Positions 9,129 to 27,760 of a DNA stretch of 64,000 bases are shown here, one piece after another. Position numbers and translations under genes: made by a program. The stretch spans positions 1,917 to 65,916 of the forward strand of contig JALXCB010000112.1 of the NCBI GenBank assembly GCA_026991225.1, written 5' to 3'. The number at the start of each line of letters is the position of its first letter. Positions within the stretch are counted from its first letter, which is position 1. Below the pieces are notes generated by a model, which was not told the origin of the DNA, ran no database searches, and saw only the letters and a list, made by a program, of their open reading frames with translations. The stretch is from Anaerolineae bacterium (GTDB lineage: Bacteria > Chloroflexota > Anaerolineae > J102).

Positions 9129-10055
9129 ATGAAAATCCTTGTCACCGGCGGGGCCGGGTTCATTGGCTCCCACATCGTCGACCGCTACATCGAACTGGGC
9201 CATGACGTCATCGTCGTGGACAACCTGGCCACGGGCAGCAAGGCCAATGTGAATCCCAACGCCCGCTTCTTCCCCCTGGACGTGCGCTCTCCCGAATTCG
9301 CCGCTCTCATCCGCAGCGAAAAGCCCGACGTCATCAACCATCACGCCGCCCAAACCCTGGTGCGCATCTCCACCGAACAGCCCGTCTTCGACGCCGACGT
9401 CAATGTGCTGGGCATCATCAACCTGCTGCAGGCCGCGGCCGAGGCGGACGTGCGCAAGGTCATCTTCGCCTCTTCGGGTGGCACCGTGTACGGCGTTCAG
9501 GACAAACTCCCCATCACCGAGGACACCCCCTTCGCGCCGCAAAGCCCCTACGGCATCAGCAAAACCGCCAGCGAGTTCTATCTGCGCTACTATGCGGCCA
9601 ACTGGGGCGTGGCCTATACCGCCTTGCGCTACGCCAACATCTTCGGCCCGCGCGACACCGTCTCCAGCGAACACGTCATCACCGTCTTCGCCACCCAGAT
9701 GATCCGGGGCGAAACCCCCACCATCCACTGGGATGGCGAACAGGCCAAGGATTATCTTTACGTCGGAGATGTGGTCAATGCCAATGTGCAGGCGTTGACA
9801 AAGGGGGACAACGAAGCCTACAATCTGGGAGCCGGTCAACCTATCTCGGTCAACACCATCTTCAAGCTGATTCGAGACATCCTGGATGTGGATGTGGAAC
9901 CTCGATTCGGCCCCAAACGTATGGGGGACGTGCGCCTGTTCTATCTGGATAGCCGCAAAGCGCAAAGGGAACTGGACTGGCGTCCGCAGGCGCCCTTCCT
10001 CGACGCCCTGACCGAAACCGTGCACTGGTACCGCGACCACCTGTTCCGAAAATAG
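9129..10055 (+). CDS. NAD-dependent sugar epimerase/dehydratase (UDP-glucose 4-epimerase family)
   Basis: ATG 9129 gives MKILVTGGAGFIGSH (Rossmann fold). Catalytic YGISK present. The track's 9045 start lies in repeat DNA. The last codons (LFRK-TAG) lie in a shared repeat junction. Confidence 0.88.
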   Translation: MKILVTGGAGFIGSHIVDRYIELGHDVIVVDNLATGSKANVNPNARFFPLDVRSPEFAALIRSEKPDVINHHAAQTLVRISTEQPVFDADVNVLGIINLLQAAAEADVRKVIFASSGGTVYGVQDKLPITEDTPFAPQSPYGISKTASEFYLRYYAANWGVAYTALRYANIFGPRDTVSSEHVITVFATQMIRGETPTIHWDGEQAKDYLYVGDVVNANVQALTKGDNEAYNLGAGQPISVNTIFKLIRDILDVDVEPRFGPKRMGDVRLFYLDSRKAQRELDWRPQAPFLDALTETVHWYRDHLFRK

Positions 10056-10277: not shown

Positions 10278-12182
10278 GTGCCCAACACCACCCCCTGTCC
10301 CCACCTGGGACTCGCCTACGACCGCAGCCTCCTTCGCACCGAGCCCGACGGGGACCATCGCTGCTACGCCCAACTCCCGCCCGCGCCCATCGACCTGGCG
10401 CATCAGGAAGCCTATTGCCTCACGGCGGAGCATGTCAATTGTCCTTTTTACATTCATCCCGTAGGAACCGAGGGGCCAGAGGAGGAGGAAGATGTCCGCG
10501 CCTGGCAAAAGGCGTATCTGGGCATTATCGGGGTCATTCTCGTGGTCCTGGCCGTGGTGTATGGCCGTACGCTGTTGTTCCCACCCGCCGTCGCCCCGAC
10601 CTCGACGCCGACGGCGATGGCGTTGCCCACAGAAAGGACTTCTTCTCCCACGGTCGTCCCCACGCTGCCGCCGACGCCGCTTCCGGTGACGCCGCCCGCC
10701 GAGGTCAGCACACCTACGCCCGAGCCGGGCGGCCGCAGCTTCACCCTGCGACCCGACGCCGGGGATGTGACCTGGTGGGATAGCCAGGAAGCCGCCCGGG
10801 CCCATGTGGGCGATTCCTTTCTCTATGCAGGATATTTTCAGGGCCGGGTATTCCTCTCCGCCATCCGCTTCGACCTCTCGCGCATCCCTCGCGGCGCGCC
10901 CATCCGCGGGGCCACCCTTTCCCTGACCGGGCTGCAAATCGACCGCTTTGATCCCCGGGCCGGCGGGCAATGGACCGTGCAGATATTGCAACCCGACGCC
11001 ATCGATGGCTGGCCCCGCCTCGATTTCCAGACGGCGCTCAACGTGCCCGCGGCCATCACCCTGGTGCCCTCGCTGACCGCGGACCAGTTGGGCAAGGGCG
11101 TGGAAAATCGCTGGGAGTTAGACGCCAGCGCCCTGGTCTGGATCGAGCAGGCATTGGTTGATGGCAAGGACGCCCTGGTGTTTCGCATCGTGGGGCCCAC
11201 AGGCGGGAAGAGCACGCTGTTTGGGTGGGATAGCGGCGTCGGGCCGGAGAGCCTGGGCGAGCCGCCGCGCTTGTGGCTGAATGTGGGACCGCCGCCGGCC
11301 ACGCCGCCGCCATTGCCCACCCAAGAGCTTATCGTCGCCACCCTCACGCCCACACCCGCCAACGTGCTGACCGTGGCCGCCAACAGTCTCACGGCCACGG
11401 CGGTCGCCCGCACCATCGGGACGTATACGCCGGTTCCTCCCAACATCGCTACGCCCACGCCTACGCCCGCCAATCTGGCCACCATCCAGGCGCTGGCGTT
11501 CCAGCTTGGGTTACCGCCTGTCGCTCCGCCCACCCCCTTCCCTCACAACGACGCCACGGCCACAGCGCAGGCCAACTATGCAACGGCCGTGGCCATCGCC
11601 ACCGGCACTTTTACGCCCACGCCCGAGGACGCGGTCACGCCCTTCTTCCCCACGCCCACGCCCACCGCTGGCAACCTGGCCACGGCCGTCGCCTACGTAT
11701 TGCAGGCCACGGCCCAGGCTCAAACCGCGACGCCCACGCCCTACCCCTATAACGCGCTCGTCCCCACGCCCACCTTCACGCCCTGGTTCATCACCGCCAC
11801 CCCTACGCCAATCAACGCGGCCACGGCCACAGCAGAAAGCTTTTACGCCACGGCTGTGGCGCTGACCACGGGCACGCCCACGCCTCTCCCTCCCAACGCA
11901 ATCATCCTCCCCTACGGCGTCAAGGAGACGCCCGCGCCGCATCCTTTCGTCAGCGGAGAGCAGGTGCAAATCGCGGGCGAAGAGGCTGTGGAGGTCCGTC
12001 GCGCACCCTCTCTCGATGCTTCCATTGTCACGAAATTGACGCCCGGCGCGAAAGTCACGATCGTGGGCGGGCCATATTTCGCAGGACAGTCGATATGGTG
12101 GCTTGTTCGATTCGAGTCAGCATCTGCTATAATGTATGAAGGATGGATTCGAAACCAGCAATTGGCTCCCATCGGTGAATGA
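10278..12182 (+). CDS. membrane-anchored protein: N-terminal Cys/His-rich cytoplasmic motif, one TM, Thr/Pro-rich region, C-terminal SH3b-like domain
   Basis: 634 aa with GTG start. N-terminus CPHLG...HRC...CLTAEHVNCPFY, TM GIIGVILVVLAVVYG, long TPTP-type low-complexity stretches, and C-terminal GEQVQIAG...WWLVRFE...GWI (SH3-like). Confidence 0.7.
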   Translation: MPNTTPCPHLGLAYDRSLLRTEPDGDHRCYAQLPPAPIDLAHQEAYCLTAEHVNCPFYIHPVGTEGPEEEEDVRAWQKAYLGIIGVILVVLAVVYGRTLLFPPAVAPTSTPTAMALPTERTSSPTVVPTLPPTPLPVTPPAEVSTPTPEPGGRSFTLRPDAGDVTWWDSQEAARAHVGDSFLYAGYFQGRVFLSAIRFDLSRIPRGAPIRGATLSLTGLQIDRFDPRAGGQWTVQILQPDAIDGWPRLDFQTALNVPAAITLVPSLTADQLGKGVENRWELDASALVWIEQALVDGKDALVFRIVGPTGGKSTLFGWDSGVGPESLGEPPRLWLNVGPPPATPPPLPTQELIVATLTPTPANVLTVAANSLTATAVARTIGTYTPVPPNIATPTPTPANLATIQALAFQLGLPPVAPPTPFPHNDATATAQANYATAVAIATGTFTPTPEDAVTPFFPTPTPTAGNLATAVAYVLQATAQAQTATPTPYPYNALVPTPTFTPWFITATPTPINAATATAESFYATAVALTTGTPTPLPPNAIILPYGVKETPAPHPFVSGEQVQIAGEEAVEVRRAPSLDASIVTKLTPGAKVTIVGGPYFAGQSIWWLVRFESASAIMYEGWIRNQQLAPIGE

Positions 12183-12227
12183 TGGCGATTTACTCAGAAC
12201 ATCACATTTCACTTCAGGATCAACACC

Positions 12228-13919
12228 GTGGAACTTAGAGAATACCTGCTTCCTCTTCGCAAATGGTGGTGGCTTTTAGTTCTATCGACGATAATAGCGG
12301 CTGTCTTCAGCTTTCTCGCTGTCAGCCAGCAGCCCCCCATCTATCAGACGCATGTGACTTTGATGGTGGGGCGGGCCATCGACAACCCCAACCCCTCCGG
12401 CTCCGATTTCTGGCTGACGCAACAATTGGCCAACACGTATGCCGACATCGCCAAACGCGAGCCGGTCAAGCAGGCTACTATGGACGCGCTGGGGCTGACG
12501 TGGTTGCCCGAATACACCGTAAGGGTGGTTCCCAACACGCAACTCATCGAGATCGCGGTGACCGATACGGACCCGGTGCGGGCGCAGGCTGTAGCCAACG
12601 AACTGGCCAACCAGCTCATCAAACAAAGCCCCACTGGCAGCGGGCCGGATCAGCAGCGCCAGGAATTCATCGAACAGCAATTGAATGAATTGGAGAAGGG
12701 GATCGAGGAGACAAAAGCGCAAATCGATCAGAAACAGGAAGAGTTGGCGTCCATGTTCAGCGCCCGACAGATCGCGGACGCCAAAGCGCAAATCCAGGCC
12801 TTGCAAGACAAGTTGAACACATTGCAGGCCAATTACGCCTCGCTCCTGGCAAATACCGAACAGGGAGCCATCAACACCCTGACCATTATCGAACCTGCCG
12901 TCCTACCCGAGAAGCCCGTGGGCCCCAACAAGCCCATGACTGTGTTGTTGGCCTCGGCCATTGGCCTCATTCTGGCGGCTATGGCGGCCTATTTGTTGGA
13001 TTACCTGGACGACACGATTAAAACGCCCGATGAAGTCAAGAAGCTGTTGGATTTGACGACGTTGGGGGCTGTGCCGCGCATGAAGGATTCCGAGCCGGAG
13101 TTGATCGCTATGAGTAGCTCGCAATCGCCTGCGGTCGAGTCCTACCGCATCCTGCGTACGAATTTGCAATTCGCTGCGGTGAATCACCCCCTGGACGCCT
13201 TGTTGATCACAAGTCCGTCTCCAACCGAGGGCAAATCGATGACCGTGGCCAATCTCGCCATTGCCATGGCCCAGGCGGGAAAGAAGACCATCATCGTTGA
13301 TGCGGACCTTCATCGCCCCCGACAGCACAAACTCTTCTCCCTGCCCAACAATGTTGGCGTCACCACCGCCCTCCTTTCGGAACATCCCGAACCGGATGGC
13401 CTGCTGCAATCGACGCAGACACCCAACCTGTCCGTGCTGACATCCGGGCCGTTACCGCCCAACCCCGCCGAACTGCTCGGCTCTGAACGGATGAAGGCGC
13501 TTTTGCAGCATTTGGCGGAAGAAGCTGACATGATCATTCTAGACAGCCCGCCCGCCACCGTCCTTTCCGACGCCATGATCCTCTCCACCCAAAGCGATGG
13601 CGTGCTTTTGGTGTTGGACGTGGGGCAGACTCGTCGGGATGCAGCACAGCGGGCTGTGGAAGGGCTCCGGCAGGTGAACGCCCGCATCGTTGGCGTTTTG
13701 CTGAATCGCGTGCCCATCAAGGGAAGCGGATATTATTACTATTATTACTACTACAGCAGCGATTATAGCTCCCACGATGGCCGTCGCGGCTCTGGCAAGG
13801 GGCTCTGGGGGCGTCGCAAAAAACGCAAACGGCGCACTTCTCGGCAGGCGGCCGCGCCGGCGCCCGCCCCATCATCTCCCGCGACGCAGCCGGCGCAAAC
13901 CTCCGTCGACCCAAACTGA
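12228..13919 (+). CDS. Wzz-type chain-length determinant fused to BY-kinase (tyrosine autokinase)
   Basis: 563 aa. N-terminal Wzz TM plus coiled coil. Walker A SPSPTEGKSMT, A' DADLHRP, Walker B IILDSPP. C-terminal Tyr cluster GYYYYYYYYSSDYSS followed by a basic tail. Confidence 0.9.
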   Translation: MELREYLLPLRKWWWLLVLSTIIAAVFSFLAVSQQPPIYQTHVTLMVGRAIDNPNPSGSDFWLTQQLANTYADIAKREPVKQATMDALGLTWLPEYTVRVVPNTQLIEIAVTDTDPVRAQAVANELANQLIKQSPTGSGPDQQRQEFIEQQLNELEKGIEETKAQIDQKQEELASMFSARQIADAKAQIQALQDKLNTLQANYASLLANTEQGAINTLTIIEPAVLPEKPVGPNKPMTVLLASAIGLILAAMAAYLLDYLDDTIKTPDEVKKLLDLTTLGAVPRMKDSEPELIAMSSSQSPAVESYRILRTNLQFAAVNHPLDALLITSPSPTEGKSMTVANLAIAMAQAGKKTIIVDADLHRPRQHKLFSLPNNVGVTTALLSEHPEPDGLLQSTQTPNLSVLTSGPLPPNPAELLGSERMKALLQHLAEEADMIILDSPPATVLSDAMILSTQSDGVLLVLDVGQTRRDAAQRAVEGLRQVNARIVGVLLNRVPIKGSGYYYYYYYYSSDYSSHDGRRGSGKGLWGRRKKRKRRTSRQAAAPAPAPSSPATQPAQTSVDPN

Positions 13920-14181: not shown

Positions 14182-15345
14182 ATGTCTGTTCCGAATGCTC
14201 TATTCTACGCTTTGCTCCGGGCCCGATGGGACGAAAGCGCGTGGTCCGAGGCCGCGCAAATCATCCAGGAGGGCTCCATCGATTGGCCCGCGTTCCTTCA
14301 TCTCGCCAAAGCGCGCGGGCTCGCCCCTCTCATCTATAGCGTGACGCGAGATCATGCTCTCCTGCCGCCGCAGGTGGACCGGGCGTTGCAAGCGCACTAT
14401 GTGCACAACGCGGCTCGCTCCACCCTGCTTTTCGACACACTCCACGCCATCCTGGATGCGTTCGAGCGCGAGGGCGTTCAGGTCATCCTGCTCAAAGGCG
14501 CGGCCCTGGCCGAAAGCGTCTACGCCAACCCCGCGTTGCGCCCGATGATGGACCTGGATCTCCTGATCCGGCGCGACAGTCTGGACGCGGCGACGCGGGC
14601 ATTGACAGACCTGGGCTTTGCACCCGACCGGCGCGAACCTCGCCGCGGCGCCATACAGGCATTCGAGAGCCAGATGCGCTTTCATCGCCCCGATCTGACC
14701 GACTCCCTGGTCGAGCTTCATTGGAGCCTGCTGGATTCACCCTACTACCAGGAGCGCCTGAATGAGGCGTGGTTCTGGCAAAGCGCCCGTCCAGTGAGGG
14801 ACAGCCACGCGCACACGCTCGGCCCCGAAGCGCAGATCATCCACCTCAGCGCCCACATGCTGCTCCATCATGGGCGAGCCATCTGGCTGGGGATGCACGA
14901 CATCGCGGAGGTGTGTTATCACGAGAAGGACACCCTGGATTGGGCGCTGCTCCTGGCAAAAGCCAGGGCCATGCACCTCGTATTGCCCCTACAGCACATC
15001 CTGCCACAAGTGAAGCGAGGCTGGCGGGCTTCCATCCCAGACGCAGTCCTCCAGGATCTCCAGCGGCTTCCGGCCTCGGATGACGAACGGCGGGCGTTTC
15101 ACTGGCTCACGCGACAACGGACGTCCGAAGCGCATCATTTCCTGGCGGACCTCCTCACCACGCCCTCCGCCCGCCAGCGATGGCGCTTCGCCCTGGCCAA
15201 CATCTTCCCCTCGCCCGTTTACGTCCGGGAGCGCTACGGCATGAAAACGCCCTGGTTGACGCCCTATGCCTATCTTCGGCGATGGCTGCGCGGCATGGCC
15301 CATCTCCGGCATCTGTTGCGCCCGCCCCAGCCTTTCCGCGAGTGA
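14182..15345 (+). CDS. uncharacterised nucleotidyltransferase (NTP_transf_5-like), copy 1
   Basis: MSVPNALFYALLRARWDE...; motifs LKGAALAESVYANPALRPMMDLDLLIRR and ELHWSL. Paralog of 23386-24561. A GTG at 14158 is an alternative start. Confidence 0.75.
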   Translation: MSVPNALFYALLRARWDESAWSEAAQIIQEGSIDWPAFLHLAKARGLAPLIYSVTRDHALLPPQVDRALQAHYVHNAARSTLLFDTLHAILDAFEREGVQVILLKGAALAESVYANPALRPMMDLDLLIRRDSLDAATRALTDLGFAPDRREPRRGAIQAFESQMRFHRPDLTDSLVELHWSLLDSPYYQERLNEAWFWQSARPVRDSHAHTLGPEAQIIHLSAHMLLHHGRAIWLGMHDIAEVCYHEKDTLDWALLLAKARAMHLVLPLQHILPQVKRGWRASIPDAVLQDLQRLPASDDERRAFHWLTRQRTSEAHHFLADLLTTPSARQRWRFALANIFPSPVYVRERYGMKTPWLTPYAYLRRWLRGMAHLRHLLRPPQPFRE

Positions 15346-15351
15346 GCTTTT

Positions 15352-15782
15352 GTAACTGCTAACGTAGCCCTGTTCACTCGACACGGATAGGAGGAAACGC
15401 GGATAAAATCTTTTGGGTGCGTCCTAAATGAGTTGGCGTTAGCCGGACGTACTGGCCGAGTGAACGGGGCCCTTTAGAGCCTGTTATGAACTTATCGCCA
15501 ATTTGGCGTTGATTTTGTAGATGACGCGCGTTTCAATTCGCCACGGATGAAGCTGATGCGGCGATCTTGGCCTTTGAAGGCGGCAAAATGCATAACAGCC
15601 TCTAGGCGCAAGCCCCCTCCTTTGCTTCCTCCCCCGCTTCGAGACGGGCGGGGGGAGGAAATCAAGTCGCAAGTGGCAAGTCCTTCTGGGAAGACGTTTT
15701 TTCACCCGCCACTTTTTCCTTCGCGCCTTCGTTCTCTTCGTGTCTTCGTGGCAAAAAGTAGCAGCGAGACCTGCGTAGTTAT
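15352..15782. mobile_element. composite/nested repeat: type-1 MITE halves flanking other repeat modules
   Basis: Left end GTAACTGCTAACGTAGCCCTGTTCACTCGACACGGATA matches the 25078 and 62332 copies. The right end CTTCGTGTCTTCGTGGCAAAAAG...GCGTAGTTAT is degenerate. The interior matches the inverted 28440-28540. No clean TSD. Confidence 0.55.
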
Positions 15783-15790
15783 TTTTCAAC

Positions 15791-16258
15791 ATGCTATCCC
15801 CCGCCGCTCTGCACTCCACCGTCTACGCCGCGGTCCTGCGCGACGCCCTCGCCCGAAATCGCGGTTTCTCATGGACGCTGCAGGGCGAAAGCATGTGCCC
15901 GACCCTGCCGCCGGGCTGCGTCGTGACCATCCAGCCGCTGCAGACACCCAGATTGGGCGATATCGTCGTATTTTCCCAGGGGGACAGACTCCTGGCCCAT
16001 CGTCTGGTGCGCCGCCGCGGGGATGGCTGGATCTGCCAGGGCGACGCCCGGCGCACGCCCGACGGTCTTATCACCCGAGAGCACATCATCGGGCGGGTCG
16101 TCGAAGCCCGATGGGGGGAGCGTGTGATCTGGGCCGCACCGGAGTCGGCGCCCACTCGCTATCGTTGGATACTCCGCTATCACCTTTTGCGAGCGTTTCG
16201 ACTTTTTCGAAGACTTCATCGCGAGATCATCGTCCCATGGAAACGGCCTTCGTTCTGA
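15791..16258 (+). CDS. soluble S24/S26-family peptidase (signal-peptidase-like, Ser/His type)
   Basis: 155 aa. Ser motif QGESMCPTLPPG. AHRLV sits where bacterial SPase I has K-R, resembling the SipW/Sec11-type His. GDIVVF and QGD are present. No TM helix seen. Confidence 0.75.
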   Translation: MLSPAALHSTVYAAVLRDALARNRGFSWTLQGESMCPTLPPGCVVTIQPLQTPRLGDIVVFSQGDRLLAHRLVRRRGDGWICQGDARRTPDGLITREHIIGRVVEARWGERVIWAAPESAPTRYRWILRYHLLRAFRLFRRLHREIIVPWKRPSF

Positions 16259-17127
16259 GCTTCGCCGGGCTTTCCTTTCGCATCGACGCCCCAGAACCCG
16301 AGTGGTCCCAACGCTTGCAAGAACGATATCAGGCCTTTCTTGCGGACGAGGCCGCCGCGGATTGGCGCATCGCCCTGCGCCACGCCCCCGATCTTCCCCA
16401 GGCCGCCGCGGATTGGGCCCGGCATGAAGCCACGCGCACCGAGTTTCACATCGCCTCCTACCGGGGGCGGGTGGATTTCGCCACGCGTCGGGCCCAGGTC
16501 CTCACGCCCGACCTGCAACGAGCGCCGTCGGCCCTGGCCCGCACCATCACCTTCATCGCCACGGTGATCTTGCCTCGGGAAAAGGACGGCTTGCTGCTTC
16601 ACGCTTGCGGGCTGGCTAGCGACGCCGCGGCCTTCGCCTTCTGCGGACCTTCGGGCGCGGGCAAGAGCACCATCGCCCAACTGGTCCCGCCTACCCTCCA
16701 GGTCATGAGCGATGAAAACGTGATTGTGCGTTTGAGCGAAGCCGGGCCGATCCTTTACAACACGCCTTTCTGGGGCCAGAATACGCCCGAGACGCGCATC
16801 CATCGTCAACGCATCCATCGCCCCCTGAAAGCGGCGTTCATCCTCAAACAAAGCCCTCGCTGGTCGTTGCGCCCCCTTGCGCCATCCCAGGCGATTCTGG
16901 CATTGCTCGCCACCGAAAAAGTGGCCGTGGAACGCACGCCCAGCGCCCAGGCCTGGCTCGACATCGCCTCCCGGCTCCTGGCCCAAACGCCCATCTTCGA
17001 ACTGGGCTTCCTGCCCGCGCCCGAACTCTGGTCATTTCTCGCCGAACAGGGTTTTCCTATCCCCCTGTCTTCTCCTGAATCTCGCCATGTCCCTCCCCGA
17101 CCATCTCACTCCCCGACGCCATCCTGA
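16237..17127 (+). CDS. HPr-kinase-related P-loop protein (HprK C-terminal-domain-like)
   Basis: ATG 16237 (METAFVLSF...) overlaps the peptidase gene by 22 nt. LLLHACGLASDAAAFAFCGPSGAGKSTIAQL resembles the HprK P-loop. The longer track ORF (15547) runs through repeat DNA. Confidence 0.75.
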   Translation: METAFVLSFAGLSFRIDAPEPEWSQRLQERYQAFLADEAAADWRIALRHAPDLPQAAADWARHEATRTEFHIASYRGRVDFATRRAQVLTPDLQRAPSALARTITFIATVILPREKDGLLLHACGLASDAAAFAFCGPSGAGKSTIAQLVPPTLQVMSDENVIVRLSEAGPILYNTPFWGQNTPETRIHRQRIHRPLKAAFILKQSPRWSLRPLAPSQAILALLATEKVAVERTPSAQAWLDIASRLLAQTPIFELGFLPAPELWSFLAEQGFPIPLSSPESRHVPPRPSHSPTPS

Positions 17128-17368
17128 CACCGCCTTTCGCGTCTTCGAGGGCGAGGCCGTACTCATCTCCCCCGCCCAGAACATGGTGCGCACGTTGAAC
17201 GTCACCGGGTCTCGCATCTGGGAATTGATGGATGGCGAGCACAGCATCGCCGATATCGCCGCCATCCTCAGCCAGGAATTCGAGGTCTCCACCGCCCACG
17301 CCCTGTCCAGCGTGCGGGCTTTCGTGCAGGAACTGGCGGAGCGCCAGCTCGTTCAGCTTGCGTCCTGA
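17087..17368 (+). CDS. PqqD-family protein (RiPP recognition element-like), copy 1
   Basis: 93 aa from ATG 17087, with a 41-nt overlap with the kinase gene. FRVFEGEAVLISPAQNMVRTLNVTGSRIWELMDG..SIADIAAILSQEFEVS is PqqD-like. Confidence 0.8.
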   Translation: MSLPDHLTPRRHPDTAFRVFEGEAVLISPAQNMVRTLNVTGSRIWELMDGEHSIADIAAILSQEFEVSTAHALSSVRAFVQELAERQLVQLAS

Positions 17369-17370
17369 CC

Positions 17371-18423
17371 GTGGACCCCTATCAATCCCTGCTCGATCGC
17401 CTCAAACGACAGCACACGCCCTACGCGGTGACGTGGGAACTGACCCATCGCTGCAACCTGGCCTGCTTCATGTGCTACAACGTCCCCCGCGCCCAGCCGG
17501 AACTCTCTACGGAGGAGGCTCTGGACGTGCTGGAGCAACTGGCCCGGGCCGGGGTGCTGCGCCTCACCTTCACCGGCGGCGAAGTCCTGGCGCGGCGAGA
17601 TTTCCTCACCATTGCCCGCCGCGCCCGTGAACTGGATTTCGCCATCGACATAAAAACAAACGCCACCTTGATCACGCCCGAGCTGGCGGATGAATTGGCC
17701 GCGTTGCATCCGGTGGAGGTGGAAGTCAGCCTTTTGGGCGCCACGCCCGAGACGGTGCAGGGCGTCATGGGCGGCCACCGCACATTGAACCGCATCCTGG
17801 GTGGGGTGCGCCTTTTGCTGAACCGCGGCGTGCGCGTCACCCTGAATTCGCTGATGATGCGCATCAATCTGCACGAACGCGAAGCCATGATGGCCCTGGC
17901 CCGCGAACTGGGCGTCCCCCATCGCATGGTTTTCAAAATCTCGCCCGACGATGACGGCAACGATAAATCCAGGGGCCAACAGCTTCCCTTCGAGGACATG
18001 GTGACGCTGTATGGGGAAATGTGCGAGCCCTTCCAGCCGCGGCCCGGCCATCCCCGCGCCCGCACCTGCTCCGTGGGCCTCCACGCCTGCCTCATCGATC
18101 CCTACGGAGTCGTCTTCCCCTGCATCGAACTGCGCATTCCCGCCGGTAGCCTGCGCCAGCAGCCCTTCGAGACTATCTGGCGGGAAGCCCCCATCTTCCG
18201 CGAACTGCGTGAGCGGCACACGCTGGCCCACATGCCCGCGTGCCGCACCTGTCCCTTGCAGACGTATTGCGAGGGGCGTTGCTCGGGCGCAGCCTGGAAA
18301 GAACGGGGCGATCTGTACGCCCCCCACACCCTGGCCTGCCGCCAGGCCCAGGCCCGATATCACAGCCTGCATCCTGCCGAACCCATCCCATCTCCCGCCT
18401 TCTTCCTGGAACCTGCGCCATGA
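17371..18423 (+). CDS. radical SAM enzyme with C-terminal SPASM domain
   Basis: GTG start 2 nt after the PqqD stop. CNLACFMC (CxxxCxxC). C-terminal Cys clusters CSVGLHACLIDPYGVVFPC and CRTCPLQTYCEGRCSG. Confidence 0.9.
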   Translation: MDPYQSLLDRLKRQHTPYAVTWELTHRCNLACFMCYNVPRAQPELSTEEALDVLEQLARAGVLRLTFTGGEVLARRDFLTIARRARELDFAIDIKTNATLITPELADELAALHPVEVEVSLLGATPETVQGVMGGHRTLNRILGGVRLLLNRGVRVTLNSLMMRINLHEREAMMALARELGVPHRMVFKISPDDDGNDKSRGQQLPFEDMVTLYGEMCEPFQPRPGHPRARTCSVGLHACLIDPYGVVFPCIELRIPAGSLRQQPFETIWREAPIFRELRERHTLAHMPACRTCPLQTYCEGRCSGAAWKERGDLYAPHTLACRQAQARYHSLHPAEPIPSPAFFLEPAP

Positions 18424-18605
18424 AAGACGAGAAAAAGACACGCGATGCAGCGCGGCCGTCACGCAAGCCCTGGATCGAGCCCGCCGTCACTTTCGAGCGC
18501 CCCCTGGAGGTGCACGCGGATGGCCCGCCGGACAAGCGATCGCAACAATCCTTCAGCTTCCTCGGGCCTTTATACGCCTCGCAAAACAGCGGCGTCTGCC
18601 ACTGA
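18420..18605 (+). CDS. 61-aa candidate precursor peptide (hypothetical)
   Basis: ATG overlaps the rSAM stop (ATGA). My count gives GC3 of ~77%, versus ~66% for the overlapping 18445 frame. The ORF ends 8 nt before the signal-peptide start of the next gene. Sequence: MKDEKKTRDAARPSRKPWIEPAVTFERPLEVHADGPPDKRSQQSFSFLGPLYASQNSGVCH. Confidence 0.5.
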   Translation: MKDEKKTRDAARPSRKPWIEPAVTFERPLEVHADGPPDKRSQQSFSFLGPLYASQNSGVCH

Positions 18606-18612: not shown

Positions 18613-21255
18613 ATGATGAACCAACGTCGATGGGGAACCAGCGCCGGAGCAGCGGCTCTCCTCCTGGCGTGGTGGGTCTGGACCCTGACAGCCTTTCCTG
18701 CGTCCGCCACCGCGGCGACGCCCCAGGCGTTTCGCATCGTCACCCGGCAGGCAGGGCTCTATCACATCACCTACGAGGATTTGCAGCAGGCTGGCGCCGA
18801 CCTGGCCGGGCTCACCCCGGACGCCATCGCCATGACCTACCTGGGACAGCCGGTCGATATCCTCATCATCGGGGGAGAGGATGGGCGTTTCGATCCTGGG
18901 GATGCCGTGCTCTTTTACGCGGCGCCCTATCGCGGACGCTACATGACGGGAAATGTGACCTGGCTTATCCTGGGAGGGGGCCCGGGCGGGCGCATGGCGA
19001 CGCGAGCCCGGCAGCCCGATGGCTCCGAGACCCGGGTGAACGTCATCACCCGCACGTTGCGCCTGGAATACGACCGGGATTATCGCAGCAACTATCATCG
19101 GCCGCGGGATGAAGATCACTGGTTCGATATGCCCCTGAGCGTGGTTGCCTCCTCGCCCGTGGTCACCCGCACCTACCCCTTCACCCTGACGCATCTCGCC
19201 GCGTCAGGCCTGGTAACCATCCGGGCGTTGCTCCACGGCGGACGGAATCAGCCTGCCTCGCCCGATCAATCCCTGGCCCTCACCCTCAACGACCACGCCC
19301 TGGGCCTCTTCCAATGGGATGGCAGCGAGGATTACCTCACTACGGTCGTGACTGAGACCAACGTCTTGCGGGAAGGCGCCAACGCCCTGGACCTGGTGGC
19401 GGGGTTGGACCAGTTCCCCGCGGATGCGGGCGTCGGCAGCTATTGGATTTCGCCCGACTGGGTGGAGATCGACTATCCCGCCCGGGCGTGGGCGCAGAAC
19501 GGGCGTTTATTGGCGCAGGGAATCCCCTCAGGCCCGATGGAAATCGTAGCCGAGGGTTTCCCGTCCTCCGACGTCTGGGCCTTCGACATCACCGATCCCC
19601 GCCACCCTGTGCGCGTGCTCAGCGTTCGGGCGCAAGAGGGCCGCGTTCATCTGTGGGATGACGCGCCCGTCCACGCCCGCTACATCGTCAGCGCTCTCGA
19701 CGCCTTTCTCAGCCCCGTCGCCATCGAGAAGGACCGTCCCTCTCACCTGCGGGAGCCCCGCGGTCATGTGGATTACATCGCCATCGTCCACCGCTCCCTA
19801 TGGGACGCCATCGATCCTTTGCTGGCCCACCGTCGGGCCGAAGGCATGATCGTGGCCAAAGTGGACGTCCAGGATATCTACGACGAATTCAGCTTCGGCC
19901 GGGTGGATCCCGAAGCCATCCGCGATTTTCTGGCTTGCGCGTACGAACACTGGCGCGGCGAGCAAGGGCCGCCCCGCTTCGTCCTCCTGGTGGGAGATGG
20001 CCATTACGATTTTCGCGGGAACTCGGGAACTTCCCTGCCCAACCTCATCCCCCCTTACCTCATCGACGTCGATCCCTGGATCGGCGAGACCGCCGCGGAC
20101 AATCGCTATGTGAGCGTGGACGGGCCCGACAACCTGCCCGACATGAGCATTGGCCGCATCCCCGCCCGCACCCCCGCGGAAGTCGCCGCGGTGGTGGACA
20201 AAATCCTGACCTACGAAGCGGCCCCCGCGGGCGATTGGCAGAAGCGCATCCTGTTCGCGGCGGACCGTGCCACCGATTTCGACGCGGATTTCCCGCGCAT
20301 CAGCGACGCCATTCGCCAGCACTGGCTGCCCCAGGCGTACGATGACCGCCAGCTCTACTATCTGGTGGATGAGCCCGACGCCGCGGCCATGCGCGCCGCG
20401 TTCAAGCGGGCGTTCGACGATCCGCCGTTGATCTTGCAATGGTTCGGCCACGCGTCCCGCTTTCGCTGGGGCTCGGTGAGCATGTTCAACATCTTCGATC
20501 CGCCCGCGCTGACCGAGAACTCGGTCTGGCCCGTGACCTTCACCTACGCCTGTTGGAGCGGCTACTTCATCAATCTCTATCGCGACTGGCAGAGCCTGGG
20601 CGAGACCCTGGTGCTTACCCCCGGCCGCGGCTCGGTGGCCGATCTCTCACCCGCGGGCCTGCATGTGGGCGACAGCCTCACCGCGTTGAATCAGGGCGTC
20701 ATCAAAGCCATCTATCAGGATAAGATCGAACGTCTGGGCCCGGCCATCGATGCGGGCAAACGCCATTTCGCGGCCCACAGCGACGCCTGGCACGACATCA
20801 TCGACACCTCCATCCTCTTCGGCGATCCCGCCTTGCGGCTGCGACGCCCCGAGCATTGGGATTTGGACCGCTCCAACCTGGCGATGAACCCCACGTCCCC
20901 CATCGCCGGGCAGACCCTGACCGCCACCCTGACTGTGCGCAGCGACGCAGCAACGCCCTTGGCGGGCGTCCAGGCCGTCGTCACCTTCGATCCCGCGCTC
21001 CTGAGCGTGGAGGATGCGCCGGGCGCGGAGGTGGAGCCCGGCCGTCTGACCTGGACCCTGACCCTATCGCCAGGCGAAAGCCGACCGCTGCCCTTCTCCT
21101 TGCGCGTCGCCCCTGGATTGGCGGGCGAGGCGAGCGTCCAGGTGCGGGCCGTGATACGTTCCCCGGGCCAGGATGACGTCATCCTGCACCAGACTCTGCA
21201 TCTCCGCGCCGCGGCCTGGCGCGTGTTTTTGCCCTTCACTTTGCAGACGCCATGA
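18613..21255 (+). CDS. secreted peptidase C25 (gingipain/PorU-like) family protein
   Basis: ATG 18613 gives MMNQRRWGTSAGAAALLLAWWVWTLTAFPASA (signal peptide). YIAIVH...RFVLLVGDGHYD, FGHASRF (His) and YACWSGYF (Cys) resemble the C25 catalytic region. Confidence 0.75.
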   Translation: MMNQRRWGTSAGAAALLLAWWVWTLTAFPASATAATPQAFRIVTRQAGLYHITYEDLQQAGADLAGLTPDAIAMTYLGQPVDILIIGGEDGRFDPGDAVLFYAAPYRGRYMTGNVTWLILGGGPGGRMATRARQPDGSETRVNVITRTLRLEYDRDYRSNYHRPRDEDHWFDMPLSVVASSPVVTRTYPFTLTHLAASGLVTIRALLHGGRNQPASPDQSLALTLNDHALGLFQWDGSEDYLTTVVTETNVLREGANALDLVAGLDQFPADAGVGSYWISPDWVEIDYPARAWAQNGRLLAQGIPSGPMEIVAEGFPSSDVWAFDITDPRHPVRVLSVRAQEGRVHLWDDAPVHARYIVSALDAFLSPVAIEKDRPSHLREPRGHVDYIAIVHRSLWDAIDPLLAHRRAEGMIVAKVDVQDIYDEFSFGRVDPEAIRDFLACAYEHWRGEQGPPRFVLLVGDGHYDFRGNSGTSLPNLIPPYLIDVDPWIGETAADNRYVSVDGPDNLPDMSIGRIPARTPAEVAAVVDKILTYEAAPAGDWQKRILFAADRATDFDADFPRISDAIRQHWLPQAYDDRQLYYLVDEPDAAAMRAAFKRAFDDPPLILQWFGHASRFRWGSVSMFNIFDPPALTENSVWPVTFTYACWSGYFINLYRDWQSLGETLVLTPGRGSVADLSPAGLHVGDSLTALNQGVIKAIYQDKIERLGPAIDAGKRHFAAHSDAWHDIIDTSILFGDPALRLRRPEHWDLDRSNLAMNPTSPIAGQTLTATLTVRSDAATPLAGVQAVVTFDPALLSVEDAPGAEVEPGRLTWTLTLSPGESRPLPFSLRVAPGLAGEASVQVRAVIRSPGQDDVILHQTLHLRAAAWRVFLPFTLQTP

Positions 21256-21349: not shown

Positions 21350-21394
21350 TTTCTCCGCGCCTTCGTGGCTCTATTTACAAAGCTGAATTACACC

Positions 21395-23377
21395 ATGTCT
21401 TCTCACCGCTTTCTCCTGTTTTTACTCATCGCAATCACGGGCCTGATGGTGGTGGCGGGAATCCTGCCCTCATCTGTGCACGCAGCCGATTGCGCCACCG
21501 CCCAAAATGGCGACTGGAACGACCCAAACACCTGGACTGGCTGCAGCGGCGGGACGCCCGGGGCGGGGGATAACGTCAGCATCAGCCATACAGTGACGCT
21601 CACACAAAACGAAAGCGCCGCGAACGTCACCATCAACGCCAGCGGCACGCTGAACCTGGCGGGATACACCCTGGACGTCAAGGGCAATTGGGATAACAGC
21701 CATGGCGGAACCTTCAATCATGAAAATGGCACAGTCCAATTCAGCGCCTCCAGCGGCTCGCAGAGCCTGAGCGGGGACACGACCTTTTGTGACGTCATCA
21801 TGGATCTATCCTCCTATGTGACCTTCGATTGGGGAAGCAACACAACCACTGTCATCGCCGGGAATCTCACTAAACCCAGCGGCGGCACTTTGAACGCTGG
21901 AACCAATACGACGGTTCGCTTCACCGGCGCCTGCAAACCCAATAACACGGCCGCTATCGATGGCGGCGGGGCCAAACGTTTCGTCCATCTCGAAATCGCC
22001 TCGGGGGCGACGGTTCAACATTCAGGAGGCGGTTTATACGTATTTGGCGACTTCACCAATGACGGCGTTTTCTCTCAATCCAGCAGTTCAGGAATCACTT
22101 TCGATGACGACGCCTCCCTTACAAGCCATACGTTATCGGGCAGTGGTTCCACAACTCTTGAAAGCTTGTATGTGGGCGGGGGGGGCAATACACTGACAGC
22201 GCAAGCGGATGTAACCATCCAGGGAGACAATTTCAATGTGGCCAGCGACAGCACATTCGATGGGGGGAGCCATACGGTTACCTTTGATGGCGACACCTCC
22301 CTGGGAGGAGCAGGCGCTTACAATTTTCACAATGTTGTCATCAATTCTGGAAAGACGTTGAATGGCAAAACGGCCGGGGATGGCGTCATCAACGTCTCAG
22401 GAGACTGGACGAACAACGGGACGTTCACGCACAATAACAGCCAGGTCACCTTCGATGGAACGAGCGTACAAACCATTGGCGGCTCCGCGACCACGACATT
22501 TTATGACCTGGTCGTGAACGCCGGGGCGATTGTGGACGCGCCAGCCGCCAATCAGCCTCTGGCTGACAATGATGTCGCCAATAACGGCGAAATGCGCCAG
22601 ACGCGTAGCGTCGGCGGCGCCACATCGTTCCTGCATCTCACCAGCAGCAGCGCCGCCGACAGGTATTTTGGCATGGATTTGGACGGCAGCGTGGGGAGCA
22701 CGGAGGCGGCCATTCGCGGCAATCAGGATTCCTGTCCCAATGTGCCCGCAGGCAGTTATCCCGTGAAACGCTGTTACGCCATCACCCCCGGCAGCGCTGG
22801 CGCGGTCACGGCCAAATTCTACTACGAATATGGCGAATTGCGCTCGGGCCAGGACCCGGCCACCCTGTTCGTGTGGAAGGACAATGGCGACGGCACGTGG
22901 ACCAAGATCACGCCCGACAGCCGCAGCGCCTGCAATACGGACGATATCGGCTGTTCGGTGACGGTGAACAGCCTGTCGCTGGGAACGGGCGTCAACCGCT
23001 TCGTGCTGGCCCACACCAATCCCCAGGCCGTGAGCATGGCCCGGTTCGAGGGGCAATGGTTGCCCACAGGCGGTGCGCTGCTCTCCTGGGAGACGGTCAG
23101 CGAGTTCGATTTGCTGGGCTTCAATCTCTACCGACGGACGTCGGCTGCCCAGCCCTGGAAGAAGCTCAATGATGCGCTCATCCTCAGCCCCTCGCCCGGC
23201 TCCTCCCAGGGGCGCACTTACGCCTGGCGGGATATCGATCCCTCGGAGGGGGCGAGGATCGCCTATCGGTTGGAGTGGGTGGACATGAACGGCGTCGCCT
23301 CGCCCGTGGGAGAAGCGCAGGTCGTCAATCTGTCCGACGAGCTTCCCTATCGAGGCTGGCTTCCCATGCTGCGCTGA
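21395..23377 (+). CDS. secreted repeat protein (beta-helix-like G-x-T/N repeats) with C-terminal Ig/Fn3-like domain
   Basis: ATG 21395 gives MSSHRFLLFLLIAITGLMVVAGILPSSVHA. A ~100-aa unit recurs: (V/I)xGxWxNxGTFxHxNxxVxFxG...Q(S/T)(L/I)xG..TF.D(V/L). The tail reads LSWETVSEFDLLGFNLYRR...WLPMLR. Confidence 0.7.
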   Translation: MSSHRFLLFLLIAITGLMVVAGILPSSVHAADCATAQNGDWNDPNTWTGCSGGTPGAGDNVSISHTVTLTQNESAANVTINASGTLNLAGYTLDVKGNWDNSHGGTFNHENGTVQFSASSGSQSLSGDTTFCDVIMDLSSYVTFDWGSNTTTVIAGNLTKPSGGTLNAGTNTTVRFTGACKPNNTAAIDGGGAKRFVHLEIASGATVQHSGGGLYVFGDFTNDGVFSQSSSSGITFDDDASLTSHTLSGSGSTTLESLYVGGGGNTLTAQADVTIQGDNFNVASDSTFDGGSHTVTFDGDTSLGGAGAYNFHNVVINSGKTLNGKTAGDGVINVSGDWTNNGTFTHNNSQVTFDGTSVQTIGGSATTTFYDLVVNAGAIVDAPAANQPLADNDVANNGEMRQTRSVGGATSFLHLTSSSAADRYFGMDLDGSVGSTEAAIRGNQDSCPNVPAGSYPVKRCYAITPGSAGAVTAKFYYEYGELRSGQDPATLFVWKDNGDGTWTKITPDSRSACNTDDIGCSVTVNSLSLGTGVNRFVLAHTNPQAVSMARFEGQWLPTGGALLSWETVSEFDLLGFNLYRRTSAAQPWKKLNDALILSPSPGSSQGRTYAWRDIDPSEGARIAYRLEWVDMNGVASPVGEAQVVNLSDELPYRGWLPMLR

Positions 23378-23385: not shown

Positions 23386-24561
23386 ATGCTTGCCGCTCCG
23401 GCTGACGATCCCGTCACCCACTTCCTGATCCTCTGCCTGCGCGGGCGGTTCGATACAGGCGCGTTGGACGAGGCCCGGGATTGGGCGGTCGCTCAGGAAT
23501 TGGATTGGCGGGCCATCGACGATCTGGCCACACGAGCGTCGCTCGCTCCCATCCTCTACGCCCTGCTACGAAAACAGACATGGTTTCCGGCTGATATCCT
23601 CCAACGCTGGCATCGGGCCTATCTGACGACGGCCCTGATCAATACGCTCTCTCTGCTGGAACTGGCGCGAATCGGCGACGCGTTCGGTGAGGCGGGCATT
23701 CCCTTCATCACCCTCAAGGGAGCGGCCCTGCTGGGGCAAGTCTACAAAAATGTCGCTTTGCGCCCGATGGCCGATCTCGATCTCCTGGTTCATCGGGAGC
23801 ACATGGCGCAGGCTTCCGGCATCATCCAGGCCATGGGCTATGCTCCCAACCACGAGGAAGAGCATCCGGGCATGTTTCTGGCCTATGAGAACGAAATCGC
23901 CTTGCAGCGGCCCGGAACGCGCCATACGATGATCGTGGAGCTTCATTGGAGCCTGATCGATTCGCCCTACTATCAGGAACGTCTGCCCATGGCCTGGTTC
24001 TGGAAGACGGTCATCTCCGAACGGGTGGGCGAACTCACCACGCTCATACTGGGGCCCGAAGCAACGCTGCTGCATCTGACCGCCCATCTCATGCTGCATC
24101 ATCAGGGCAAGGGGCTGCGCTGGCTGCATGATATAGCCGAGGTGATATGCCATTTCGACGCCGCGATAGACTGGGATTTGTTGCTGAAGCAGGCGAGCGA
24201 TTTTCGTCTGACGCTGCCCGTGCAACAGGCATTGCCCGTCGTGGCGACGCGCTGGCGTGCGCCTGTCCCGACCGCGGCCTTGGAGGCGCTGGCCCGGCTG
24301 GAAGCCTCGCCCGAAGAGCAACGCATCTTTGCCCAAATGACTCGAGCCAACGCCTCGCCGGGGCGTCGGTTGCTGAGGGATCTTTCAGGCATGTCCGGGC
24401 GTCGCAGGCGGATGCGTTTTTTGTGGTTGAAGTTGTTTCCATCGCCCGCCTACATGCAAAGGCGGTACGGCGTCTCTCATCCCGGTTTGACGCTCTTTTA
24501 CTATCCTTATCGATGGCTGCAGGGACTCACCGACTTGTTCAGAGGAGGGAAGCATGAATGA
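23386..24561 (+). CDS. uncharacterised nucleotidyltransferase (NTP_transf_5-like), copy 2
   Basis: ATG 23386 (MLAAPADDPV...). Shares LKGAALLGQVYKNVALRPMADLDLLVHR, ELHWSLIDSPYYQERL and the FPSPAYMQRRYG tail with copy 1. Confidence 0.75.
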   Translation: MLAAPADDPVTHFLILCLRGRFDTGALDEARDWAVAQELDWRAIDDLATRASLAPILYALLRKQTWFPADILQRWHRAYLTTALINTLSLLELARIGDAFGEAGIPFITLKGAALLGQVYKNVALRPMADLDLLVHREHMAQASGIIQAMGYAPNHEEEHPGMFLAYENEIALQRPGTRHTMIVELHWSLIDSPYYQERLPMAWFWKTVISERVGELTTLILGPEATLLHLTAHLMLHHQGKGLRWLHDIAEVICHFDAAIDWDLLLKQASDFRLTLPVQQALPVVATRWRAPVPTAALEALARLEASPEEQRIFAQMTRANASPGRRLLRDLSGMSGRRRRMRFLWLKLFPSPAYMQRRYGVSHPGLTLFYYPYRWLQGLTDLFRGGKHE

Positions 24562-24856
24562 GGTAAACGCATCGCAAAAAATCGTGTTGACGAAAGACAC
24601 GTTGTTTCAGCCACTTGAGGAGGATGCCGTCCTGCTCAATCTCGAAAGGGAACAATACTTTGGCCTCGATGAAGTGGGCACGCGCATGTTGCAGGTGATG
24701 CTGGAATCCCCCAATCTGGGCGCGGCCTACGAGGCGCTGCTGGCGGAATATGAGGTGACTCCCGGACGGTTGGAAGCGGATATGGCCCGTTTCCTCGATG
24801 AACTGCTGGAAAATGGGCTGGTGAGGGTGTTGCCCGATGGCGACGTTGCAGGATGA
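24554..24856 (+). CDS. PqqD-family protein, copy 2
   Basis: 100 aa, overlapping the upstream gene by 8 nt. LEEDAVLLNLEREQYFGLDEVGTRMLQVM..LGAAYEALLAEYEV is PqqD-like. Confidence 0.75.
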   Translation: MNEVNASQKIVLTKDTLFQPLEEDAVLLNLEREQYFGLDEVGTRMLQVMLESPNLGAAYEALLAEYEVTPGRLEADMARFLDELLENGLVRVLPDGDVAG

Positions 24857-24877
24857 TAGGGCTTTTCCTCTTCGAGT

Positions 24878-25034
24878 GTAACTGCTAACGTACTTGACTT
24901 TAGGCCGCCAAAAGCCACGAAGGCTCGAAGTTTTTCGAAGACACGAAGGAAAAATCAAGGAAAATACGTCGCGCCTTGGCTTTTCTTCGTGCCTTCGTGA
25001 TAAAAACGTCTTGCAGAAGGAGTTGTATAGTTAC
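24878..25034. mobile_element. MITE, type 2 (degenerate right end)
   Basis: GTAACTGCTAACGTACTTGACTTTAGGCCGCCAAAAGCCACGAAGGCTCGAAG... is near-identical to 31786-31931. The right terminus is degraded (TATAGTTAC). No TSD. Confidence 0.65.
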
Positions 25035-25077
25035 GATTACAAAACCATGCCAGGGGAATTCGACGTTTCTATGAGTC

Positions 25078-25221
25078 ATAACTGCTAACGTAGTCCTGTT
25101 CACTCGACACGGATACGAGGAAACACGGATAAAATCTTTTTTGAATGACTTCGCGTCTTCGTTTCCTTCGTGTCTTCGTGGCAAAAGAGGGGCGATTGGG
25201 GCCAACTACCTTAGCAGTTAC
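25078..25221. mobile_element. MITE, type 1, with 8-bp TSD TATGAGTC
   Basis: ATAACTGCTAACG...CCTTAGCAGTTAC. TATGAGTC occurs at 25070-25077 and 25222-25229. Near-identical to 62332-62475. Confidence 0.85.
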
Positions 25222-27672: not shown

Positions 27673-27698
27673 TCGCCCCCTAACCTGATTCTGTGAGG

Positions 27699-27733
27699 AC
27701 GCGTGGCCGAGATAAGGGAGCTCGGCCACGCGT
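27699..27733 (+). terminator. perfect 13-bp stem hairpin downstream of the GH gene
   Basis: ACGCGTGGCCGAG-ataagggag-CTCGGCCACGCGT. The T-tract is weak, so terminator function is uncertain. Confidence 0.4.
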
Positions 27734-27760
27734 TATGCGTCTTTCAGGAAGCATCTTCCC

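Follow-up and report, generated by a model that had tools for sequence, protein, structure and literature searches.

The system closest to the locus described here is the SynChlorMet (SCM) cassette, which was defined by computation in TIGRFAMs/NCBIfam (TIGR04248-04251) and for which our literature search found no experimental study. Uncharacterised families of peptides made by the ribosome and modified after translation (RiPPs) that involve radical SAM (rSAM) enzymes are common. In lasso peptide systems, leaders with a YxxPxL motif are bound by PqqD-like B1 proteins. During the biosynthesis of pseudomycoidin, PsmK phosphorylates a Ser, and PsmN then transfers a hexose onto the phosphorylated peptide (PMC6993621). 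In this study, we analysed a stretch of 64,000 nucleotides (hereafter the window) from contig JALXCB010000112.1 of an Anaerolineae bacterium, which encodes in close succession a PqqD-family protein, an rSAM enzyme with a SPASM domain, a peptide of 61 amino acids (aa) and a PorU-like peptidase of family C25. These four genes form a conserved core, and the locus probably encodes an uncharacterised RiPP-type maturation pathway that has the product of the 61-aa open reading frame (ORF) as its substrate.

The core genes lie on the plus strand. The PqqD-family protein (17087..17368; PF05402, E 2.5e-18), a predicted RiPP recognition element (RRE), is followed by the rSAM/SPASM enzyme (17371..18423; motif CNLACFMC; Radical_SAM PF04055, E 1.5e-25; SPASM PF13186, E 2.8e-9), whose stop codon shares an ATGA overlap with the start of the predicted precursor peptide (18420..18605; MKDEKKTRDAARPSRKPWIEPAVTFERPLEVHADGPPDKRSQQSFSFLGPLYASQNSGVCH). 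The gene for the secreted PorU-like C25 cysteine peptidase (18613..21255; PF01364, E 5.6e-73) begins 8 nt on from the end of the 61-aa ORF. The survey covered 48 Chloroflexota loci with the window proteins as tblastn queries, the one-genome-per-species scan yielded 46 Chloroflexota loci, and the denominators count the loci with enough flanking sequence. As a longest-ORF caller picks antisense ORFs in high-GC DNA, co-occurrence was counted from tblastn and hidden Markov model (HMM) matches. The 46 loci spanned Anaerolineales, Caldilineales, Thermoflexales, Ardenticatenaceae and Ca. Amarolinea (locus L011). Where the flank sufficed, PqqD was directly upstream of the rSAM gene in 46 of 46 loci, a homologous small ORF lay at most 700 nt downstream of it in 42 of 46, and a C25 peptidase followed downstream in 30 of 32. 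Therefore, these three genes together with the rSAM/SPASM gene make up the conserved core, and as 46 Chloroflexota genomes at species level have this gene order, the arrangement is beyond chance.

The small ORF is where the sequence-only reading had set its own test, by asking whether a small ORF downstream of the rSAM gene is conserved; with homologues in 42 of 46 loci and 63 distinct sequences in the family alignment, it held. The 61-aa ORF is a real gene. A word-indexed protein search with the 61-aa peptide returned only itself and one relative, and an exhaustive profile search was needed. The rSAM homologues formed more than 300 clusters, and three contexts fetched by exact protein all had an ORF of 63-67 aa after the rSAM gene. 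With an HMM made from three of the peptides, nearly every locus yielded a homologue immediately downstream of rSAM, and the profile search over 1.84e9 representative proteins added 22 independently called peptides, 56-70 aa long; the 488-aa repeat protein P0255 was discarded as a false positive of the profile. No member of the family matched Pfam or NCBIfam, even at E = 10. The leader half follows the pattern (R/K)K-x-W-E-x-P-x-I-x-L-E-R-x-L-E-(V/A)-x-A-(Q/D), in which W, P and one L are invariant in all 63 peptides, E is found in 62 and R in 61; position +13 is V, A, T or I and position +15 is A in 60 of the 63. The core carries a GP(L/F)-x-x-S block across the family and exactly one Cys in 59/63 peptides. 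This Cys lies 8-15 residues beyond GP(L/F) and is the last or next-to-last residue in 47/63; the C-termini read G-x-C(-x). Across the 63 sequences the leader motif is kept and the length of the core varies; between the window and its closest species-level relative, locus L005, the peptide is 63% identical against 88-89% for the enzymes (rSAM 89%).

The peptide tracks PqqD and rSAM, not C25, as two loci (L027 and L030) have a second peptide copy that lies upstream of PqqD and immediately follows a secreted protein with a tail, and as loci in Acidimicrobiales have the peptide but no C25. Two precursor copies were located in L027 (9144-9329 and 11191-11343), L030 (9112-9294 and 11186-11338) and L036 (11189-11356 and 14629-14757). 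In L004 two further copies (9392-9581 and 12044-12308) were each split over two reading frames; these may be indel errors or pseudogenes, the contig name suggesting a long-read assembly.

Comparison with the SCM cassette brought out both likeness and difference. Each has a ScmC-family P-loop protein, a PqqD-family protein and an rSAM/SPASM enzyme in one operon. However, the window has one rSAM enzyme where SCM has two (ScmE and ScmF), and its proteins stay far below the respective family cutoffs, with 29.2 bits against 125 for ScmC (TIGR04249), 40.7 against 100 for ScmD (TIGR04248), and 109.9 and 86.4 for ScmE (TIGR04250) and ScmF (TIGR04251) against 400 each. The window also differs by its single-Cys core, an NTP_transf_5 protein, the PorU-like C25 peptidase, the surrounding exopolysaccharide (EPS) locus and the want of an ABC transporter. 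The window cassette is thus a divergent, un-modelled relative of the SCM kind, whose common features are an aromatic-x-x-P leader, PqqD, ScmC and, in most cases, an rSAM enzyme together with a core that bears Cys. The TIGR04352-04355 grouping around HPr-rel-A, named in the sequence-only reading, did not fit, since HprK_rel_A reached 30.5 bits against 200 and PqqD_rel_X 16.9 against 35; SynChlorMet is closer.

Modules of a related kind were present outside the Chloroflexota set. In Acidimicrobiales (L051 and L053), Wzz, a distant ScmC, PqqD, rSAM/SPASM, the peptide, (S24), NTP_transf_5, Wzy and glycosyltransferases follow one another in this order, without C25, and the peptides read KK-x-W-x-R-P-Q-L-R-S-E-x-V-D-E-T-L-A-x-P-A-C-Q…. 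Locus L055 combines ScmC, PqqD, rSAM, a 53-aa peptide (KKPYTKPSV…ETLALACGK…C…) and S24. Locus L066 is a near-canonical SynChlorMet cassette, with ScmF at 474 bits (cutoff 400), ScmE at 379, a ScmC-like gene and an ABC transporter; after ScmC comes a gene resembling archaeal-type S26 signal peptidases (66 bits, with the cutoff at 51.85), and its precursor (MKKRYEKPISIDL…) has a KK-x-Y-x-x-P-x-I leader and five Cys. The precursors of L051, L053, L055, L063 and L066 all combine a leader of the form KK-x-(W/Y)-x-x-P-x-(L/I/V) with Cys in the core. In L052 (7001-11907), ScmC, an ABC transporter, NTP_transf_5, an S24-like gene, PqqD and a 50-aa peptide, whose leader reads KKAYKKPKL, occur without rSAM and without a core Cys, and this locus may represent a RiPP-like class of its own, with the kinase/transferase pair as its defining feature.

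The other known peptide systems were more distant. The lasso systems of paeninodin and pseudomycoidin resemble the window in their PqqD-like leader binder, their aromatic-x-x-P leader motif and the pairing of an HprK-superfamily kinase with an 'uncharacterised nucleotidyltransferase', PsmN being likened to NTP_transf_5 by that description. They differ from it in that the window has an rSAM enzyme and its PqqD protein scored 41 bits against 80 and 27 against 70 with the lasso PqqD models; no lasso cyclase (Asn-synthetase-like), B2 protease (transglutaminase-like), YcaO or Lan enzyme was found among the Pfam-scanned ORFs of the window. The sactipeptide and ranthipeptide systems (SkfB, AlbA, StsB, CteB, PapB) share the rSAM/SPASM enzyme, a PqqD-type leader binder and a Cys core, but in the window the core has one Cys, PqqD is encoded as a protein of its own, the scores stay below every family cutoff and the thioether is only predicted. 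The earlier claim that the gene combination fits no characterised or modelled RiPP class was borne out, with no lasso, YcaO or Lan enzyme in the scanned ORFs and every NCBIfam match far below its cutoff. Our literature search found no paper on this gene combination, on PF14907 with PqqD, on C25 with rSAM and PqqD, on ScmC/PF27840 or on PorU in Chloroflexi.

Features general to RRE-dependent rSAM/SPASM systems were present, namely a precursor beside the maturase, a PqqD element, and the CxxxCxxC and SPASM cysteines. Among 12 homologues of the rSAM enzyme, C28, C32, C35 and 8 C-terminal Cys were invariant, and the best 120 homologues, mostly from Chloroflexota, were 55-88% identical to it. Its best NCBIfam matches (NirJ2, AhbD, MftC, StsB, ScmE and PqqE) gave 105-137 bits against cutoffs of 265-625; the StsB match (110.8 bits against 625) spanned the full length, and AlbA gave 50 against 850. 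The best PDB sequence match was PqqE (6c8v), SkfB also being matched, and in a fold search the AlphaFold2 (AF2) model was about equally like BlsE, SuiB, PqqE, SkfB and anSME. With scores below every cutoff and fold matches about equal, the chemistry of this enzyme is therefore not readable from homology.

PQQ and mycofactocin are likewise made by a stand-alone PqqD-type protein and an rSAM/SPASM enzyme acting on a short peptide. We weighed whether the locus yields a peptide-derived small molecule or cofactor, in which the C-terminal G-x-C(-x) would be transformed and released by a peptidase (S24 or C25), NTP_transf_5 might glycosylate the product and the rest of the peptide would serve as scaffold. 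MftC (128.5 bits) and PqqE (105 bits) are among the best named matches of the rSAM enzyme and PqqE is its top PDB sequence match, the PqqD partner stands alone as do MftB and PqqD, the invariant residue is at the extreme C-terminus as in MftA, and some lineages have the locus among housekeeping genes, seemingly vertically inherited. We nevertheless regard this explanation as unlikely. All the scores are under half of the family cutoffs (MftC 265; PqqE 105.3 against 381), PqqD scores 34.6 against 46, the precursor has no Glu-x3-Tyr pair and no C-terminal GVY, and neither PqqB and PqqC nor equivalents of MftD-F are encoded. Conservation of the mid-core GP(L/F)-x-x-S block equals that of the Cys, an argument for a functional core of greater length; the neighbourhood has no conserved redox partner enzymes, and a secreted peptidase is an odd partner for an intracellular cofactor. 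Homology of the leader to PqqA was rejected, as hhalign against PqqA sequences gave a probability of 1.4% and only W-x-x-P-x was aligned.

Upstream of the core, the window encodes a small S24/S26-type peptidase (15791..16258; PF00717, with GESMCPT and AHRL), a candidate leader peptidase, and a ScmC-family P-loop protein (16237..17127; GPSGAGKST, PF27840 via homologues), a candidate peptide kinase, preceded by a first NTP_transf_5 gene (14182..15345, alternative start 14158; PF14907, E 4.6e-49 in the Pfam scan), all on the plus strand. Five genes with identical calls by independent gene callers (155, 296, 93, 350 and 61 aa) have the same relative positions on four public contigs (L070-L073), on which the 61-aa peptide is identical. 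The six ORFs and the motifs named from the sequence at the outset were all reproduced by ORF listing and direct sequence reading, as were the overlaps of 22 nt and 41 nt, the 2-nt gap and the ATGA junction. Tight packing was correct for five of the genes but not for NTP_transf_5, which ends 445 nt (15346-15790) ahead of the S24 gene; this gap had no ORF of at least 20 aa matching the peptide HMM and no Rfam match, and promoter and terminator scans of it gave background level only. Likewise, of the six genes first grouped as one cassette, PqqD, rSAM and the small ORF stood as core, while NTP_transf_5, S24 and the P-loop gene proved to be accessory only, and the C25 partner had been omitted.

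To describe the accessory genes, we used the 26 loci that were flanked by 6 kb or more in each direction. A ScmC-like gene was present in 15 of these, and the loci with it differed from the 11 without it in NTP_transf_5 (12/15 against 0/11; Fisher p = 4.9e-5), the S24 peptidase (6/15 against 0/11; p = 0.024) and Wzz (10/15 against 0/11; p = 7e-4). NTP_transf_5, S24 and ScmC are a co-inherited accessory block tied to EPS loci and found in about half of the loci. The loci without the block adjoin MreB, Lon, NfeD and RNase genes. Swappable tailoring sets are typical of RiPP clusters, and in four loci without ScmC, NTP_transf_5 and S24 a PRMT/PrmA-like methyltransferase lies immediately upstream of PqqD (L003 6475-7461, L006 5452-6444, L019 8435-9439 and L026 7901-8866), overlapping it in L003 and L006. 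This methyltransferase may take the tailoring role instead; the Arg of the leader is nearly invariant. In L005, a 326-aa ORF with a C-terminus of Glu/Gly/Leu-rich repeats (307-1287) was observed upstream of PqqD in the place of ScmC, and may be an inserted element.

The P-loop protein had been called an HprK-like kinase in the sequence-only reading. This is right for superfamily and fold, since the AF2 model (42-sequence alignment; mean predicted local distance difference test score, pLDDT, 94.6) had ATP-dependent phosphoenolpyruvate carboxykinase (PEPCK) as its top Foldseek matches (E 3e-10, TM about 0.5), and the PEPCK superfamily also holds the catalytic domain of HprK. At family level it is not, as the Pfam scan gave no Hpr_kinase_C (PF07475) at E <= 0.01 and the protein belongs to the ScmC family PF27840, a precomputed match to which is found in all but one of the 120 listed homologues and on the 296-aa gene at the same position in contigs L070-L073. 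The NCBIfam models HprK_rel_A, ScmC and HprK_rel_B gave 27-31 bits. Searches of PDB sequences returned only P-loop noise for ScmC and nothing for NTP_transf_5, a metagenome scan with a ScmC sub-alignment keyed on the P-loop yielded only 16 loci, and the first NTP_transf_5 copy had no NCBIfam match. The S24/S26 peptidase scored 34.2 bits with PF00717 (cutoff 23.3) and 19.4 with PF10502 (cutoff 22.9), had weak matches to archaeal-type signal peptidase I and to the nickel superoxide dismutase maturation protease, and remained below the type I signal peptidase models TIGR02228 (30.6 bits against 51.85) and TIGR02227 (18.2 against 47). No clear transmembrane (TM) segment was seen in it by eye. In an alignment, its His falls at the position of the lysines in FKKL of lambda cI, and such a Ser/His arrangement is known in signal peptidases of the archaeal and endoplasmic reticulum (ER) types.

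The C25 protein belongs to peptidase family C25 (PF01364, 246.8 bits against a cutoff of 23) and, judged by eye, has a signal-peptide-like N-terminus. Its only PDB match is PorU (6za2, E 9.8e-15), a sortase of the type IX secretion system (T9SS), with the His (FGHAS) and Cys (YACWSG) aligned. It resembles PorU also in its N-terminal region, in being secreted and in being encoded beside secreted proteins with common C-terminal domains. It differs in lacking the C-terminal third of PorU, in its Chloroflexota host and in its coupling to an rSAM/peptide cassette; the match to the NCBIfam PorU model NF033707 (188.7 bits against a cutoff of 420) covered model positions 4-737 of 1095, and the scanned ORFs included no further T9SS genes. 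Many C25 peptidases (L027, L030, L039, L040 and L050) end in [FYW]LPx[LIV], and that of the window (21200-21255) ends in ...WRVFLPFTLQTP; other forms end in dockerin-like repeats or a ...NRVGEFDFALVPG domain.

Secreted proteins near the core in at least 27 loci have in common an FN3-like C-terminal domain of about 100 aa. In the window it is carried by a 670-aa secreted protein (21365..23377, plus strand; C-terminal-domain HMM, 1.8e-27; ending ...YRGWLPMLR), which had no Pfam or NCBIfam match. Its standing as cargo of the C25 peptidase is possible and is a matter of association only. Others are encoded in L003 (13461-15146), L004 (9493-10881 and 12314-14038) and L011 (17039-18793), and one tail-bearing protein has a choice-of-anchor K domain. 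Two types of tail were distinguished, one of P(T/N)AV, a hydrophobic (TM) helix and RRR, resembling a tripartite sorting signal, and one that ends in [FYW]LPx[LIV]; neither is matched by an NCBIfam model for sorting signals. Another protein of the window, of 654 aa with a signal peptide (25708-27672), had no Pfam or NCBIfam match; its C-terminus (...NRVGAFQFDLVPGTP) matches the end domain of long C25 forms (L003, L010, L024, L028, L045, L047 and L050). A domain shared by the C25 protein, the 670-aa protein and this 654-aa protein was considered and rejected, since BLASTP gave none and the link from crude clustering had come via proteins of other loci.

As the FN3-like domain is common to these proteins and their tails are of two types, we considered a system for protein sorting or surface attachment. 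The C25 protein would act as a transpeptidase joining tail-bearing proteins to the matured peptide at the new N-terminus after (V/A)-x-A, maybe phosphoglycosylated by ScmC and NTP_transf_5, so that the locus would be one arm of an as yet undescribed cell-surface assembly system of Anaerolineae in which a cross-linked, trimmed and, in some lineages, phospho-glycosylated peptide is the acceptor or anchor. PorU joins cargo to an amino-acid-bearing sugar of anionic lipopolysaccharide (A-LPS), and it is the only solved relative of the C25 protein, with the catalytic residues conserved. The two tail types, the choice-of-anchor K protein and the recurring Wzz/EPS context speak in the same direction. 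The setting is also reminiscent of PEP-CTERM/exosortase systems, in which an EPS locus (Wzz, Wzx, glycosyltransferases) accompanies secreted proteins with a motif, a TM helix and an Arg-rich end; the motif here, however, is P(T/N)AV and not PEP, and no exosortase was called in L001, L003 and L004. The case is nevertheless purely associative, no export route for the peptide is evident, the Acidimicrobiales cassettes combine peptide and EPS genes without C25, the tails could be served by an enzyme encoded elsewhere, and the PorU family cutoff is not reached. We hold such a sorting role to be quite improbable.

We also considered that the rSAM enzyme and its neighbours act on a glycan or another non-peptide, the small ORF being perhaps an upstream regulatory ORF of the C25 gene, but despite the position of the cassette inside a heptose/EPS locus and the presence of the small-molecule enzymes AhbD, NirJ2 and BlsE-type among the nearest by sequence and fold, this is very improbable, as PqqD partners the enzyme in 46 of 46 loci, the amino-acid sequence of the small ORF is conserved and its N-terminal half resembles a leader, the ORF stays with PqqD and rSAM also in loci where C25 is lacking or far away, and half of the loci lie outside glycan loci.

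The RiPP-type maturation pathway thus stays the preferred reading. In it, PqqD would bind the leader through (R/K)K-x-W-x-x-P-x-I-x-L-E-R, by analogy with the YxxPxL leaders of lasso B1 proteins, and would present the core to the rSAM/SPASM enzyme. The C-terminal Cys would then be joined to a carbon of GP(L/F)-x-x-S, 8-15 residues upstream, giving a thioether ring like those of sacti- or ranthipeptides; among the possible rSAM chemistries a thioether is the likeliest, at somewhat under an even chance. Where present, as it is in the window, the soluble Ser/His S24/S26-type peptidase may cut after (V/A)-x-A and before Q/D, a site proposed because (V/A/T)-x-A before Q/D fits the -3/-1 rule of signal peptidases. 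ScmC and NTP_transf_5 might work as partners on a hydroxyl group in the S/T-rich core, for which PsmK/PsmN offer the precedent (PMC6993621). The secreted PorU-like C25 peptidase would act outside the cell, on the product or with it. As Wzz/EPS genes and secreted proteins with common C-terminal tails recur around the core, the context points to a role in the cell envelope rather than to an antibiotic.

Several points weigh against this pathway. ScmC, NTP_transf_5 and S24 were absent within 10 kb in 11 of the 26 well-flanked loci, and therefore the block is not essential to the core, with the reservation that tblastn may miss some S24 genes. The correlation of Cys with rSAM is based on very few independent cassettes. 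AhbD and NirJ2, which are tetrapyrrole enzymes, score as high as the peptide maturases, all well below cutoff, and the fold search does not tell SPASM enzymes that form thioethers from those that form C-C bonds or oxidise. For the (V/A)-x-A cleavage site, the signal-peptidase rule is the sole basis. The cassette encodes no exporter, which leaves the meeting of a cytoplasmic peptide with a secreted C25 peptidase unexplained. The chemistry of the pathway as a whole is predicted.

The window as a whole supports the link to a glycan or envelope locus drawn in the sequence-only reading, and this link recurs in three lineages. On the plus strand at 3.8-13.9 kb it encodes a GHMP kinase, a priming sugar transferase, a fusion of SIS and NTP_transferase domains, an epimerase and a Wzz/BY-kinase-like protein. 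On the minus strand at 36-44.6 kb (36856-44615), GT4 and GT2 glycosyltransferases, a DegT aminotransferase, a sulfotransferase and a Wzx-like flippase are encoded, and this arm suggests a sulfated, amino-sugar-containing polymer. A 634-aa protein (10278-12182), rich in Cys and His at its N-terminus, also has one hydrophobic segment, a long region rich in Pro and Thr, and an SH3_3-like match at its C-terminus; it is of a type that is found directly upstream of Wzz in several loci (L001, L011, L015, L027, L030 and L039). Downstream of the 670-aa protein lies a second NTP_transf_5 gene (23386..24561, plus strand; PF14907, E 2.4e-52), for which the longest ORF, from 23275, overlaps the preceding gene; the same position is also filled in L005 and L039. 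The region from 24001 to 32000 has a GC content of 0.54-0.57 against 0.60-0.66 in the flanks, and the ORFs in this low-GC stretch (25708-27672, 28295-29053, 29697-30539 and 31462-31968) had no Pfam match. Further along, a SelB selenocysteine elongation factor (50833-52719, minus strand) implies the use of selenoproteins, and a tRNA-Pro (GGG) at 58092-58168 was the only RNA gene detected in the window.

Taken by its kind, the system is a known one, RRE-dependent rSAM/SPASM peptide maturation of the SCM type, and its new features are the precursor family, the constant PorU-like partner and the recurrent EPS context. The precursor family is sizeable and unmodelled (63 sequences), and together with its dedicated PqqD/rSAM pair it is a target for characterisation in the Anaerolineae, a class from which almost no peptide chemistry has been characterised and to which the filamentous Candidatus Amarolinea (L011) belongs. 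The co-inheritance of ScmC (PF27840), NTP_transf_5 (PF14907) and Ser/His S24/S26 peptidases, all widespread, makes their orphan functions testable. If true, the sorting idea would represent a new protein-anchoring mechanism in Chloroflexota, by which secreted proteins would be tied to the exopolysaccharide or the envelope. The linkage of a predicted rSAM-modified peptide to a PorU-like peptidase and EPS loci suggests that these bacteria use RiPP-type chemistry for the biology of the envelope and not for antibiosis.

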